Positions 1,706-62,925 of a stretch of DNA of 64,000 nucleotides are shown here, piece by piece. The notes under the pieces were generated by a model. The model saw only the letters and a list, made by a program, of their open reading frames with translations. It had not been told where the DNA came from and made no database searches. This DNA is from Alphaproteobacteria bacterium (GTDB lineage Bacteria; Pseudomonadota; Alphaproteobacteria; MPNO01; UBA2964). The stretch covers positions 112,495 through 176,494 of the forward strand of contig JBMYRG010000003.1 in NCBI GenBank assembly GCA_049602055.1, given 5' to 3'. The position numbers and the translations under genes were made by a program. Numbering within the stretch: the stretch's first letter is position 1; each line of letters opens with the position of its first letter.

Positions 1706-1782
1706 TGGCGCGCTCGGGAAGATTCGAACTCCCGACCCCTAGATTCGTAGTCTAGTGCTCTATCCAGCTGAGCTACGGGCGC
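1706..1782 (-). tRNA. tRNA-Arg (anticodon ACG)
   Basis: Reverse complement reads GCGCCCGTAGCTCAGCTGGATAGAGCACTAGACTACGAATCTAGGGGTCGGGAGTTCGAATCTTCCCGAGCGCGCCA. It has the cloverleaf with D-stem GCTC/GAGC, anticodon stem CTAGA/TCTAG, loop CTACGAA (anticodon ACG), T-loop TTCGAAT and 3' CCA. There is one C:A mismatch in the acceptor stem. Confidence 0.85.
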
Positions 1783-12296: not shown

Positions 12297-13652
12297 CTAG
12301 CCGTGGACCAGTGTTGGGGTCGGCCGCTCACTATGATTAGGCTCAATCGGCAGCGATAACCGAAAAACCGTACCCTCATCCGTACTGCGCGCCAGGCTAA
12401 TATCACCACCATGGCCCAGCATCAGATCTTGTGCGATCGATAGACCAAGACCTGAGCCTCCGGCACGTGAAGAGCGCGCAAATGGCTGGAACAGCTCATT
12501 GCGAACGCGTTCCGGGAGGCCCGGCCCGTTATCAGAGATTTCAATAATGGCATGACCGACTTCGGAATGAGCTCTCACTGTTACCCGGGTTGCCCCCGCT
12601 TCAAAGGCATTACGCGCCAAATTGAGAAAAACTCGATACATTTGGTCTCTGTCAGCATGGAGTTCCAGTCGCGCATCAACACGGCTATCGAGAACAGTGT
12701 TGCCATCGCCCATCGTCTTCGCGGCGTCTGAAGTTTCATCTAGTAAGGGGGCCAATCCAAATCGCGTTAATTCAAGCTCTGTCGTCCCTTCCTGCACAAA
12801 GCGGAGAGTTTTTGAGCACAATGTTACAGCACGATCTATAGCGCCCATCAACGTCGGGGCAACACGCTTCACGTTGGGATCTTCGGAGACTTCCAAATGA
12901 TCTGACATCAGCTGAGCCGTCGCAAGGATGTTGCGCAGATCGTGGTTGATCTTGGCGACCGCGGTTCCCAACGCTGCGAGGCGCGTTTTCTGAATAAGTG
13001 CTGTTCGCAATCCCCGCTGCATGCCTGCTAGCTCACGTTCGGCAACACCAAGCTCATCAGTTCTTTTCCCCGGTTGAACGAGACGGGTCCCTTCTTCTGG
13101 TGCCTGGCGAAAGGAAACCATGGCGGCTGTAATGGACCGCATTGGGCGGACAAATAGCCATTGCAGGCTGGCATAAACCAATACGGCTGTCATGAGAGAG
13201 ATCATGATCGACAGCGCCAAGATATTCAGCGAATAATCGATCATCGCGCTCCGCAGGGGCGCTTCTGCAATAACAGTCTCGACGACAATATTAGGGTCTT
13301 TGGGTGACGCCCTAATGATCCGAAAGGTCCTGCTGTCGTCACTCAGGAGAATATCAAATGCATCGCCGATCAAGCCCATAAAACTGTGATTACTGAGATG
13401 GAATGTCGCGTCGATGCGGCGTGGCATCTCATCTGAAAGCATGAGCGATTTACTTGCTGGACGTTTTAAAACGATGCCAAATGATATTGCGTGATCCAGC
13501 AGCTCTTTTCTGAGCCGTTTATCGACCAGGTTATCCGGCGGAACCTCAAGCGCAAGACTGGCCAAATGGGCCGCAGCAATTCTCTCCTCAAGATACACGA
13601 GCCGGTATCGTCCTATAGAGGGCGCATATATAAACACTTCACTCAACATCAC
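12297..13652 (-). CDS. sensor histidine kinase (HisKA + HATPase_c), orphan in this window
   Basis: 451 aa. N-terminal domain, one TM segment, H-box (INHDLRNILATAQL) and G1/G2 ATP-binding motifs (DNGPGLP...GGSGLGLSI). No adjacent response regulator. Confidence 0.8.
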   Translation of the reverse strand: MMLSEVFIYAPSIGRYRLVYLEERIAAAHLASLALEVPPDNLVDKRLRKELLDHAISFGIVLKRPASKSLMLSDEMPRRIDATFHLSNHSFMGLIGDAFDILLSDDSRTFRIIRASPKDPNIVVETVIAEAPLRSAMIDYSLNILALSIMISLMTAVLVYASLQWLFVRPMRSITAAMVSFRQAPEEGTRLVQPGKRTDELGVAERELAGMQRGLRTALIQKTRLAALGTAVAKINHDLRNILATAQLMSDHLEVSEDPNVKRVAPTLMGAIDRAVTLCSKTLRFVQEGTTELELTRFGLAPLLDETSDAAKTMGDGNTVLDSRVDARLELHADRDQMYRVFLNLARNAFEAGATRVTVRAHSEVGHAIIEISDNGPGLPERVRNELFQPFARSSRAGGSGLGLSIAQDLMLGHGGDISLARSTDEGTVFRLSLPIEPNHSERPTPTLVHG

Positions 13653-14111: not shown

Positions 14112-14293
14112 GAAATTCCATCCGGAGGCAGAGTGTGGCGATCAAGACACAATTGTCTCAACAATCCGCAATTCTCCGCTTCCATTACATAATCATGCGG
14201 GACCCCGACACCAACTGATTACGCGATCACCTGCTTTCAACTTGTTGTGAGTGCAGCGTTAGAATGACGAACGAGAATTGATTCCGTCGACAA

Positions 14294-21792: not shown

Positions 21793-22707
21793 CTATTCGT
21801 AATGTAGAGATTCTGCAGACGAGGTGCGCACGGCAACGACCGCCGGATAAATTGCTGCAACCAGACAGGTCCCAATGCAAATGAGCGAGATAAGTCCCGT
21901 CGCTTGGAATGACACCAAAAAGCGATAATCAAACAAGGTAAAGTGGTCGAGAAATGAGACGCTGACGGCGCCCAGGATATTCCCGATGATTGCCGCGAGA
22001 AAGGCACCGACAAATCCCACGATTAGCCCTTCTGCGATAAGCATTTTAATAATCTGTAATCGATCCATGCCAATCGTTCGAAAAACAGAAAATTCCCGTT
22101 CACGGCCATGAACCTGTATCAACAAAGTATTCGCAACTCCGATCGTGGCCAGAATGACAGTCATCACCAAAATAAAGTCGAATATCAGGAAATCGCCACA
22201 CACCTCCACAAGATCTTTGTAGCGTTGCCGGGACTCGGCGAGGGCACCTCGAAAGGCACTTCCAAAGGCAGTGTTCCTGCCGATAATGATGACTAGTTTT
22301 TCCGCCGTTACCGGTAATATTTGAAAATCAAAAGTACGGCGTTCTGACTGACCTGATTCAATGTCTTCATGGTCATAGGCAATCGGCACATTAGTGGCCA
22401 ACCCCGCCAAAATGGCCTCACGAAATTTTGGGTCCATTGCGCCAGTGTCACCGAGCCGGAGAACGCCGGCCAGACGGGATGCCTACTCATTCGCGACCAG
22501 TAAATTTCCTGTCATATCGAGAACGGCCACCGGCCCCGGATAAGCGTTAAAAGCCCCCTTATCCGACGCCAATTCCAGAATGGTCTTGTAGCGAGATTTT
22601 CCGCTACTCATAAAATTGGAAAACATTGAGGCCATAATCAAATTGTTTGCCGTCAAGCATCGCTTGGACTTTGGACAATTACCCTTCTTGCATTTTTCGT
22701 TGAGCAA
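21793..22707 (-). pseudogene. FtsX-family ABC permease remnant (MacB/LolE-like). It is N-terminally truncated and carries an in-frame TAG at 22483..22485.
   Basis: The C-terminal FtsX 3-TM domain is intact (VILATIGVANTLLIQVHGREREFSVFRTIGM...). The same frame continues upstream through one TAG (…LLVANE*ASRLAG…). The frame is closed at 22732, so TM1 is missing. No partner ATPase is present. Confidence 0.5.
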
Positions 22708-24517
22708 TTGGCTTGCGCCGGCGTAACTCTTCTACAGACACCACAGTGGCTTCAGCGCTTACATTCTTGCCTGAGATTTTGAAACTCGGCTTTCCGAACA
22801 AATATCCTTGGCCAAACCGAACCTCGCAGGCCCGAAACATCTCAGCCGTTTCCCCGTCTTCAACCATTTCAGCAATTGTCGCGATACCGAGATCGTGGCA
22901 TAGACCAGTCACCGCCTTGAGAAAGGCACGGTTACGTTCATTGCAGGCTGCCCCTCGGACATACTGACCATCGATTTTGACAACATCGACTTCTAGAGCG
23001 TGCAGGTAACGCAAAGCGGCCGCGCCGGCCCCAAAGTCATCGAGACACACCTGATGACCAACACGTCTTAAACCCTGAATAAAGCGATTTGCGGCCCCCA
23101 AATCTTCGATACCGGCAGATTCGGTAATTTCGAAAAGAATTTGCTGCCGAACCTTACTGGCGCGTTCGAGCTGATCATGTAACGCCGCAATAAAGGCGGT
23201 ATTCGCAAGCGATTGGCCTGACACGTTCATCGCAACAGAATACTAATTACCTTTGGCTTTCATGGCCTGTAACCAATCAAGAACTCGAGCGCACATTGCC
23301 AGATCAAAGTCAGCAATGATGCCGGTGTTTTCTGCAAAGGTGATCAAATGATAGGACGAATCTTCGATTTTTTTGTTAAATTGGGCGAGCGCCTCATAGT
23401 GATGCAACGACCCATCAGCCAACGAAACGATGGGCTGAAACGCTACATCAAATTTGCCATGATCCAGGATCTCCCTAAATCTGGAAAGCGTCTCTTTATT
23501 CTCCCGGGTGAGCTTTTCAAGATTGCCTGAAAGGCTGGTCATGTCGAAATCGTCACCCTGACGATCACAAAATCCATTGACGGTGTAGAGCATCACCCAA
23601 ACAGAATCCGCCTCGCTCAACCCTCCAATATCTGCGTCGACCGTCCCGGATTTAACCGTAACGCCGTCACCACTCGGATCTGCCGTACGGAATATTTCTT
23701 CAACTCTGTTGGTAATACGGGCGACGTCGAAGGCGTCGTCATGAAGAAAACCGAAGGCCCCTTCATCTAATTGGCCTGCGGTTTGACCAGCTGCTGAACT
23801 GGCCTGCAAACCGGCCCCCATCGACCGTATAAGAGTTTCAGAGCTTTCATGATCAAGGCGATCCCGAAATTCATCGAGATCCCCCGTATGGATCATCGTC
23901 AGTTTTAAATGTTCACCTCGACTTTGAGCTTCATGAATTTGTCGACTGGCGATCTCAGCGAAGGCTTCTTTCTTTAAAAGCCCGGTGTCTGAATCTCTAT
24001 CGGCATCAGCCGAAATCTCTATAGCTGGATTAACCCGGGATAAGCGAAACGCAAAATAATGATGCCCTGGCATATCCGGCAGGTGATATCCAGTCATCAA
24101 AACCGGCAATGCTGACCCCGACATACCCGCAAGCTGAACCTGGGTAGGGTCCAGTCGTGTTCCGGGTGACATGCTGGAAAGGAGTTCCTGCACCAAACCC
24201 TGTTTTTCAGGATGAAGGAGAGCCATGAATTCGGTGCCCACGAGAGCTTCCGGCGCAGCACCCATGAGTGACTACGTTGCACCGGCGGCGAACGAGATTT
24301 TTTGCTCGGCGTTGGTTTCAATAAGGATATCAGCAGCGCAGAATGCTAAAGCGACAAACCGGTCACGTTCGCGGCGGAGAGATTCGACATAACCAGAGAC
24401 GCCGCTCTGCTGTGATTCCGTTGCCGTCATGATAAACCCGTGTGCGATTTTGAACGCTAAAGTAGACGCTCCGTGATAGTAAGGCGCAGGGCTTAACGAT
24501 TCGTTGTCCTGCGGCAA
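22679..24517 (-). pseudogene. PAS / degenerate-GGDEF / EAL c-di-GMP phosphodiesterase-type gene with two in-frame TAG codons (24272..24274 and 23243..23245)
   Basis: Three consecutive same-frame ORFs. The PAS-like N-terminus is continuous across the first TAG (…FAAGAT*SLMGAAPEALVGTEFMALLHPEKQ…). The EAL domain is continuous across the second (…DWLQAMKAKGN*YSVAMNVSGQSL…). The GGDEF is degenerate (QLDEGAFGFL). EAL motifs FQPIV…EAL and DDFGAG are present. Confidence 0.55.
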
Positions 24518-32670: not shown

Positions 32671-33321
32671 TTAAATATCCGTCCACATGCGCAAGAGATT
32701 CGCATGTGTTTTAACCAGAAGCGGAATTGTTTCTACATCATTGAGCTGATCAATCGCTGTTCTGAGATCATGTAAAACGGCTCGCTGATCAGCACTTCGA
32801 ACCGCACTTTGAATCCAGGTTACAGCCGCCAAACGCTCCCCACGTGTCACCGGAGATACCCGATGAAACATCCCTGTTGGATAAACAACCGCATGACCAG
32901 GCGGCAACTTCACGATTTGTTCGCCAGCGCCGCTTTCAAGCGTCAGAGCGCCACCGTCATAGCTATCAGGGTTATTGAGGAAAACTGTAATCGAAATATC
33001 GACCCGCATATTTCCCATAATTGCCGCATCTACATGATTGCCATACGTCATGCCATCGCTATAGCGGCTTAGCGTCGGTGGAAAAATCACCTTGGGCAAT
33101 GCAACACTCTGAAATAACGGGTTACGTTGCAACGCGACCCCAAGAATTTGATGCACTTCCTGCTGACCAGGTGAGCCAGCCTTCATCTGTAGATTATTTT
33201 TGATGTTGTGGATGTGTTTTCCCGCCGTCGTAGTACCACTTTCATATTCCACGTTCTTGGAAAGAGCTCGCAATCGTGCCGTTTCTTCCGGTGTCAGTAA
33301 CTCGGGAATGCAGGTAATCAT
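32671..33321 (-). CDS. Fe(II)/2-oxoglutarate-dependent PKHD-type hydroxylase (YbiX/PiuC-like)
   Basis: 216 aa. HxD…H facial triad (HVDAA…H near MFHRVSPVTRGERL), Arg for 2OG binding. Confidence 0.75.
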   Translation of the reverse strand: MITCIPELLTPEETARLRALSKNVEYESGTTTAGKHIHNIKNNLQMKAGSPGQQEVHQILGVALQRNPLFQSVALPKVIFPPTLSRYSDGMTYGNHVDAAIMGNMRVDISITVFLNNPDSYDGGALTLESGAGEQIVKLPPGHAVVYPTGMFHRVSPVTRGERLAAVTWIQSAVRSADQRAVLHDLRTAIDQLNDVETIPLLVKTHANLLRMWTDI

Positions 33322-40373: not shown

Positions 40374-41153
40374 ATGGTTAACAAGTGCCCTCAGCAATTT
40401 GTCGATTTCGCTGGTTCCCTTGCCGATGCTTCGGGGCCCATTCTGAGTCGTCATTTTCGAACATCTCTGCCGGTCGACACGAAACCCGACCAGACGCCTG
40501 TCAGTATCGCTGATCGTGATGCTGAACAGATAATGCGCACGCGCATTTCCGAACGATATCCGGATCACGGTATCGTAGGAGAGGAATATGGAAATGATCG
40601 CACTGATGCCGAATATGTCTGGGTTCTTGATCCGATCGATGGCACCAAAGCCTATTTAGCGGGCAAACCCCTCTTTGGAACCCTAATCGCCCTTCTCCAA
40701 GGTGGCATCCCAATCTTAGGGGTAATTGACCAGCCTATTTTGGGGGAACGGTGGCTCGGTGCCTCAGGACGGCAAACGACGTTTAACGGCACCGACGTTA
40801 CAACACGCGAGTGTCCCTGCCTTGAAAATGCGACGTTAAATGCCACATCACCAGATTTGTTTGAAGACACAGACAACAGCCGATTTATGGAATTGTCAGA
40901 GACGGTAAAAATGACAATTTATGGAGGCGATTGTTATGCCTACGGATTGCTGGCGAGCGGTCACATTGATCTGGTCGTAGAGGCTGACTTAAAACCTTAC
41001 GATTTCTTTGCACTTGTTCCGGTAGTCTCGGGTGCGGGCGGCAGAATGACTGACTGGCAGGGAAAAACACTCACTATGGAATCAGATGGACGTATCATTG
41101 CAACGGGTGACGCCACAATTTTGCCGCAGGTAACCGGTATTCTAAACGCATAG
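40374..41153 (+). CDS. inositol monophosphatase family protein (possibly histidinol-phosphatase HisN)
   Basis: 259 aa. IMPase motifs (EE…G, WVLDPIDGTKAY, GGDCYAY). Confidence 0.75.
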   Translation: MVNKCPQQFVDFAGSLADASGPILSRHFRTSLPVDTKPDQTPVSIADRDAEQIMRTRISERYPDHGIVGEEYGNDRTDAEYVWVLDPIDGTKAYLAGKPLFGTLIALLQGGIPILGVIDQPILGERWLGASGRQTTFNGTDVTTRECPCLENATLNATSPDLFEDTDNSRFMELSETVKMTIYGGDCYAYGLLASGHIDLVVEADLKPYDFFALVPVVSGAGGRMTDWQGKTLTMESDGRIIATGDATILPQVTGILNA

Positions 41154-61767: not shown

Positions 61768-62925
61768 ATGGCTGATCAGTTTTTCGACACGATCCCTGCC
61801 TTCACGGAATTCAAGGAAGTCGTCCAGAAAGATCGATACCGACCCTTGCCCGAAGACTGGCTCATCGGCGTCGCTGATGTCGTCAACTCCACAGGTGCTT
61901 TGCAGGCCGGACGGTACAAGGCTGTAAAAATTGTCGGTGCCAGTGTCATATCCGCGATCATGAATCTCGATAGAGATGCGTCCTTCCCTTTCGTCTTTGG
62001 TGGCGATGGTGCCGCGTTCGCCGTGCCAGAAAGCCGTCAAGATGACGTTGCTGAAGCCCTTGCCGGGTGTCAACGCTGGGCAGAGGAAGAGATTGATCTG
62101 GAACTACGCGCTGCGCTGGTACCGGTGCGCGATGTTTTGGCCGCCGGCAAACAGGTAAGCGTCGCCCGATTTCAGGTTTCGCCGGGTGTCGCCTATGCAA
62201 TGTTTTCTGGTGGCGGAATCGCCTGGGCCGATGCCGCTATGAAAGCTGGTGACTATACCATCGACCCGGCGGCACCGGGTACCCGTCCCGATCTCAACGG
62301 ACTGTCCTGCCGCTGGCGGCCAATGGAATCACAGAACGGCGAAATTCTCTCGTTACTGGTTATCCCACGCGATCCTGAAACCGAAGTCGAATTTGCAAAA
62401 CTGGTCGAAGAAATTCTCTCGATCCTGAACCGCGAAGCCGAGCGTGATGGACATCCTGTCGCCCCGGATGGACCGACCTATTCTTGGCCACCCTAGGGAC
62501 TAGGCATTGAAGTCAGCGCGTCACGGGGTACGAAGTCTAAACTCAGCCGTACGCTCGCCATTATCGGGGAACAGGCGGTACCCTGTTTTCTCGAACTGTT
62601 TGGTGGTCGGCTCAAACGCTTCGATCCCGCGCGTTACAAGCTTGAAACCACGCAAAACACGGATTTTCGCAAATATGATGACGGACTCAAATTGACCGTC
62701 GATTGCAAAACGGAAACGATTTCAGAGATCGAGAAAATTCTCTCAGCGGCTCAGGAAACCGGCACGGCCTTTTTCGGCCTTTATCGACAGGATAGCGCTG
62801 TAATGACCTGCATCGTCCCATCACCCTTTACCAACGACCACATCCATTTTGTCGATGGTGGTTCGGGGGGATATGCACTGGCCGCCGTGCAGCTCAAAAA
62901 AGCCATAGCGGCAGCCAGCGATTAA
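61768..62925 (+). pseudogene. DUF3095-like protein (nucleotide-cyclase-like fold?) with one in-frame TAG at 62494..62496
   Basis: Frame stays open from 62497 to 62925 (…PDGPTYSWPP*GLGIEVSASRGTK…TVDCKTETISE…). Total is about 385 codons. The N-terminal half has VVNSTGAL…FVFGGDGAAFAVP, reminiscent of class III cyclase / GGDEF folds. Confidence 0.5.

Follow-up and report, generated by a model that had tools for sequence, protein, structure and literature searches.

Two in-frame amber codons in a PAS/GGDEF/EAL gene very probably mark the stepwise decay of a c-di-GMP phosphodiesterase

In the window (the whole 64-kb stretch of DNA analysed here), three open reading frames at 22679–24517 lie in the same frame and are separated by TAG codons alone. 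This arrangement raises the question of whether the two amber codons are read through to give a functional c-di-GMP phosphodiesterase, or whether they are lesions in a gene that is being lost. We find that the locus is very probably a recently broken phosphodiesterase pseudogene in stepwise decay and not a case of stop-codon read-through.

Reading frame, start and domains of the interrupted gene

When we translated the reverse strand, we found that the frame running from 24517 to 22679 is open throughout except at two TAG codons, which stand in the contexts acgTAGtca and aatTAGtat, as reported in the initial annotation. A plus-strand reading of 22679–24517 was rejected, as it meets stops throughout. 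The gene span proposed at first therefore holds as regards the shared frame and the TAGs, but the gene lies on the minus strand and starts at an ATG at 24430. The PAS / degenerate-GGDEF / EAL c-di-GMP phosphodiesterase pseudogene as we delimit it from its translation, its domains and the intact 583-aa homologue P0001 (22679–24430, minus strand) has 583 codons, two internal TAGs and a TAA terminator at 22681–22679. The first internal stop (TAG1, 24272–24274, minus strand, acgTAGtca) is codon 53, a Gln codon changed from CAG to TAG, and the second (TAG2, 23243–23245, minus strand, aatTAGtat) is codon 396, a Glu codon changed from GAG to TAG; the downstream ORFs that result are 340 aa and 183 aa long. 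We found no frameshift anywhere in the gene, and the frame is broken by the TAGs alone. Missing frameshifts are what is expected of a very young pseudogene, yet read-through requires them to be missing as well.

The ATG at 24430 is the start common to all orthologues, and the 583 codons that it opens match the length of P0001. The initial annotation had given a 612-aa product, which is not borne out; it would begin at a TTG at 24517, and we rejected this start because the frames of L005 and L006 are not open to that point. The 29 codons 5′ of the ATG (24431–24517, minus strand) do stay open, which accounts for the 612-aa estimate. This segment is similar in L003 and L004, unlike in L005 and L006, and is probably a conserved 5′ leader and not coding sequence.

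In the conceptual read-through protein, an EAL domain (Pfam PF00563) is matched at residues 318–548 with E = 1.5e-57. The GGDEF domain is matched weakly and over only part of its profile (positions 1–110 of 161; E = 2.3e-5, 24.7 bits against a cut-off of 23.8), and in the alignment the GGDEF signature of the window's family reads DEGAF or DDGAF, with DEGAF in the window copy. The window copy has no PAS match at E ≤ 0.01; P0001, which is 85% identical, has one at residues 32–126 (E = 7e-5, 23.2 bits against a cut-off of 22.6), so codon 53 falls inside the PAS region. The reading frame through the catalytic domain is interrupted, as codon 396 lies within EAL and codon 53 upstream of it. The EALxR signature is not intact in the window, where it reads EALAQ (R350Q), and the arginine is present in L001, L002, L003, L004, L005 and L006; this arginine is part of the consensus that separates active from degenerate EAL domains (PMC3484386).

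Among solved structures, the best match to the family profile is RbdA (PA0861) of Pseudomonas aeruginosa, a PAS-GGDEF-EAL c-di-GMP phosphodiesterase (PDB 5xgb), which aligns from PAS through EAL (profile positions 17–548 against chain residues 7–560, E = 1.8e-46). The order of the three domains is identical in RbdA and in the window family; unlike RbdA, however, the family has a degenerate GGDEF signature, and the window copy has two stops and EALAQ in place of EALAR.

The neighbouring deletion and the stop sites across related strains

A protein search with the gene product returned many full-length homologues without interruption, and the intact orthologues in relatives are 573–611 aa long. 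When we scanned a genome collection, the window's own species was not among the matches; all relatives had at most 84% amino-acid identity and belonged to uncultured Alphaproteobacteria or Rhodospirillaceae MAGs. For a codon alignment we used five more distant relatives in which the EAL gene is intact over its full length (L002–L006); the codon at site 1 is CAA or CAT (Gln/His) in these relatives, and the codon at site 2 is GAA or GAC (Glu/Asp). The initial annotation had proposed that a single PAS / degenerate-GGDEF / EAL gene was split into the three ORFs and that homologues continue through both bisected positions, and the intact homologues and these codons bear out both points.

The gene order in an 85%-identical relative is HAD, EAL (583 aa), PAS-GGDEF (601), DUF2336 (430), ABC ATPase (265), MacB/FtsX permease (718), HAD, ArgB, EngB and YidC; in the window only about 890 bp separate the EAL gene from the second HAD gene. 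The alignment of the window to L003, L004, L005 and L006 stops at 22189–22194 and picks up about 5.2 kb further on in each, with GATTTC flanking the break on both sides; window position 22189 corresponds to position 12242 of L003, and 22194 to 17461. The similarity of L001 to the window also stops at 22189. This break (22189–22194, minus strand) marks the junction of a deletion of about 5.2 kb with a 6-nt microhomology, and with the deletion most of the PAS-GAF-GGDEF cyclase gene, the DUF2336 gene, the ABC ATPase gene and most of the permease gene were lost. At the junction there is a chimeric remnant ORF of 280 codons (21793–22635, minus strand), in which the N-terminus of the PAS-GAF-GGDEF cyclase runs on, without a change of frame, into the C-terminal FtsX-type domain of a MacB-like permease (FtsX match at residues 154–271, 1.3e-16). 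The remnant is called as a 280-aa gene in two related contigs (L017 and L018). In the window it carries a third stop (TAG3, 22483–22485, minus strand), where codon 51 is changed from GAG to TAG (Glu to stop). In the intact genes neighbouring the EAL locus we found no interruption.

The initial annotation had asked for a comparison with sister strains, and this comparison orders the lesions. L001 (JGI 3300044674) has 98.4% DNA identity to the window and begins within the EAL gene at about codon 95–96, with site 1 outside its coverage; over the part that it covers the gene is intact, with GAG at site 2, and downstream it has an intact 573-aa PAS-GGDEF cyclase gene. Four contigs from four different samples (L011, L017, L019 and L020) are 99.8–99.9% identical to the window and have TAG at site 2; apart from L016, the TAG2 contigs come from ENA ERZ27295583, JGI 3300004097, JGI 3300028844 and SRR5204267. 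The two of these four that reach site 1, L017 and L019, have CAG there, and so does L012, a 99.0%-identical contig that lies upstream and stems from the sample that gave L011. The deletion is common to L011 and L017, which are the TAG2-only contigs that reach the junction and are colinear across it. At site 3, L001 and all four TAG2-only contigs have GAG. L016, the Logan assembly of SRR27204701, matches the window at 100% identity over 2624 nt and has TAG1, TAG2 and TAG3; among the sequences compared, TAG1 and TAG3 are confined to the window strain and SRR27204701. The stop sites are not conserved: site 1 is CAG, CAA or CAT in eight other sequences and site 2 is GAG, GAA or GAC in six. These alignments show TAG1 and TAG2 to be recent, derived nonsense mutations at the level of strains (CAG>TAG and GAG>TAG), with TAG2 as the older lesion, common to a clade, and TAG1 as specific to the window strain.

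Selection on the gene and the course of its decay

To see on which branch the changes in the EAL gene arose, we polarised the 22 codon differences between the window and L001 with the five more distant relatives. All 15 amino-acid-changing codons, TAG2 included, arose on the window branch, and the L001 branch has none; of the synonymous changes, three fall on the window side, two on the L001 side and two are ambiguous, which gives three to five for the window side. The ratio of non-synonymous to synonymous changes is about 15:4 in the EAL gene as compared to 29:43 in the flanking genes (Fisher p = 0.004), where intact genes were compared with a sister strain. From these counts dN/dS on the window branch is roughly estimated at about 1, and the gene evolves neutrally on this lineage. 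Seven of the changes are at columns that are invariant among seven orthologues (R278W, R286G, R350Q, P359S, R496C, E526G and C207G), and R350Q is the change from EALAR to EALAQ in the EALxR motif.

These data show an ancestral intact module, a clade-wide deletion with TAG2 and a load of missense changes, and later TAG1, C207G and TAG3 in the window strain. The ancestral arrangement, which related uncultured marine Alphaproteobacteria have kept, is a HAD hydrolase, the phosphodiesterase (583 aa), a PAS-GAF-GGDEF diguanylate cyclase, DUF2336, an ABC ATPase, a MacB/FtsX permease, a second HAD hydrolase and argB. In a first, clade-wide stage, this module underwent the microhomology-mediated 5.2-kb deletion, the change of Glu396 to TAG and about 13 missense changes, listed here without regard to order; in a second stage, confined to the window strain, the change of Gln53 to TAG, Cys207Gly and the Glu-to-TAG change in the chimeric remnant followed. 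Translation would now end at codon 53, and so no functional phosphodiesterase should be made. The 340-aa and 183-aa ORFs downstream should give no functional enzyme because half of the EAL fold is missing from each. The initial annotation had likewise expected termination to leave non-functional fragments, and we infer that the fragments have no residual function. Early termination would probably also lower transcription downstream and of the remnant through Rho-dependent polarity.

As in ordinary bacterial gene decay through nonsense and deletion, close relatives here keep intact orthologues, the disabling changes are derived, dN/dS climbs to about 1, the deletion next to the gene shows microhomology where its ends join, and more lesions are added over time. 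Nothing essential sets this locus apart from such pseudogenes; what is unusual is that three successive stages have been caught in public metagenomes.

Nonsense alleles across the window and competing readings

Over 59 kb the window is colinear with a 192-kb contig of a sister strain (ENA ERZ27295583), and between the two we counted 113 synonymous, 75 non-synonymous, 5 nonsense and 19 intergenic differences. Three of the nonsense differences are in the window, all of them TAG, and two are in the sister strain: TAA in place of GAA at window position 12512, in a HATPase_c (histidine-kinase-like) gene at 12297–13652, an allele that is also present in a JGI 3300004097 contig, and TAG in place of AAG at window position 33183, in a 2OG-Fe(II) oxygenase gene at 32671–33321. 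Codon usage, taken together with the spectrum of substitutions seen here, predicts that under neutrality 2.7% of coding substitutions are nonsense and that 43% of those are TAG; the observed share, 5 of 193 coding differences, is about neutral.

In a six-frame search we also looked for pairs of segments that share a frame, are each 70 codons or longer and have one stop between them, and then matched these to Pfam. Most of the pairs only shadow a gene that lies in another frame. A pair at 40374/41166 was rejected as a split gene and is two separate genes, for an inositol monophosphatase and a solute-binding protein. The sole real additional split gene encodes a DUF3095 protein (61768–62925, plus strand), in which codon 243 is changed from CAG to TAG (62494–62496); profile positions 1–241 are matched before the stop and 245–378 after it. 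At this site five sister contigs have CAG, with an uninterrupted product of 385 aa, homologues most often have Gln, and TAG is found only in the window and in the SRR27204701 Logan assembly. The gene is 38 kb from the EAL locus and has just one other change. Some sources annotate DUF3095 relatives as adenylate cyclases. The nonsense alleles in otherwise intact genes of both strains suggest a general load of unpurged mutations.

These counts bear on a variant of the decay reading, which we regard as improbable, in which the gene was already dead and the 5′-proximal stops (codon 53 in the EAL gene, codon 51 in the chimera) were selected because they silence a truncated product that is costly or toxic, as well as the membrane-protein chimera. 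Of the substitutions in the dead 2.6 kb, only three can be assigned to the window side (with L001 or the more distant relatives), and two of the three are nonsense and near the 5′ end of their ORFs, against the 2.7% expected; however, with n = 3 and a post hoc choice chance would do equally well, the nonsense share across the window is at its neutral expectation, and both strains also have nonsense alleles in genes that are otherwise intact.

Amber tolerance would touch the whole strain or lineage: a suppressor tRNA-CUA or a weak RF1, for example, could leave TAG nonsense alleles only partly disabling. If this were so, it would account for all four in-frame stops in the 64-kb window being TAG, including the one in the DUF3095 gene with its single other change. 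We consider this very unlikely. The TAG bias amounts to p = 0.033 for four of four stops in the window and p = 0.055 for five of six, both post hoc, and the p of 0.033 is unimpressive because the finding had been selected for TAG.

Even less credence can be given to programmed or suppressor-mediated read-through (by an amber suppressor tRNA, pyrrolysine or a weak RF1) that would yield a full-length, functional 583-aa phosphodiesterase. The frame is open over both TAGs without a frameshift and each of the window's four in-frame stops is TAG, as read-through would have it; but each TAG is missing from strains that are 98.4–99.8% identical, dN/dS is about 1 with invariant residues lost (the EALxR arginine among them) and with no purifying selection downstream of the stops, the partner cyclase gene is deleted, and Gln and Glu, which stood at the two sites ancestrally, are not Lys-like. 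TAG itself acts as an ordinary stop in this genome. The 64 non-overlapping ORFs in the window end in 28 TAA, 22 TGA and 14 TAG codons (two of these TAGs being the internal ones), and TAG thus ends about 12 other genes; in both orthologue sets that we checked, for the def (deformylase) and permease genes, it stands at the same residue where orthologues stop with TAA or TGA. We rejected TAG reassignment on the basis of this stop-codon usage and these conserved termination points. In the 64-kb window we found no tRNA-CUA or pyl genes, and its sole tRNA is a tRNA-Arg(ACG); a suppressor tRNA may still be encoded elsewhere in the genome. To programmed recoding systems (pyrrolysine at UAG, suppressor tRNAs, TAG-recoded phages) the only likeness is an in-frame TAG flanked by open frame; in contrast to those systems, the TAGs here are unconserved, TAG is an ordinary terminator and the window holds no suppressor or pyl machinery. 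The initial annotation had suggested that the gene is functionally continuous across its amber codons, and the derived TAGs, the neutral evolution, the EALAR-to-EALAQ change, the deleted partner genes and the ordinary use of TAG all go against this view.

Least likely of all is that the TAGs are sequencing or assembly errors in a gene that is intact in the organism: nothing specific speaks for this beyond the fact that the two strain-specific TAGs are single-base differences, and the stops are not such artefacts because TAG2 is carried by four other metagenome contigs from four other samples and all three stops are in the independently assembled Logan contig.

Taken together, the picture is one of a natural population with recent unpurged loss-of-function alleles, not of a recoding system, and we return to the EAL locus as a pseudogene in stepwise decay. 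For annotation, the three ORFs at 22679–24517 should be given as one pseudogene and 21793–22635 as a deletion chimera; they are neither separate PAS and EAL proteins nor a recoding candidate. The locus records how a marine alphaproteobacterial population lost a c-di-GMP module, in three stages preserved in public metagenomes, from intact, to a deletion with one stop, to three stops, and is a small, clean example of the speed at which a signalling gene decays after it or its partner cyclase is disabled. It is an ordinary young pseudogene of a kind already known, and it matters little beyond annotation.

Three further differences lie elsewhere in the window. In the tRNA-Arg(ACG) gene (1706–1782, minus strand), a substitution at position 1714 turns the acceptor-stem pair C5-G68 into a C-A mismatch, and the sister contig has G at this position. 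At 14270–14281, in the spacer between two convergent genes, there are five substitutions in 12 nt, all of them to A in the window as compared to two sister strains. Finally, between 28000 and 44000 the divergence from the sister contig is about 0.6–1.4%, as compared to about 0.1–0.2% elsewhere (5–10 times more), which points to a recombination tract or to a strain history that is mosaic.
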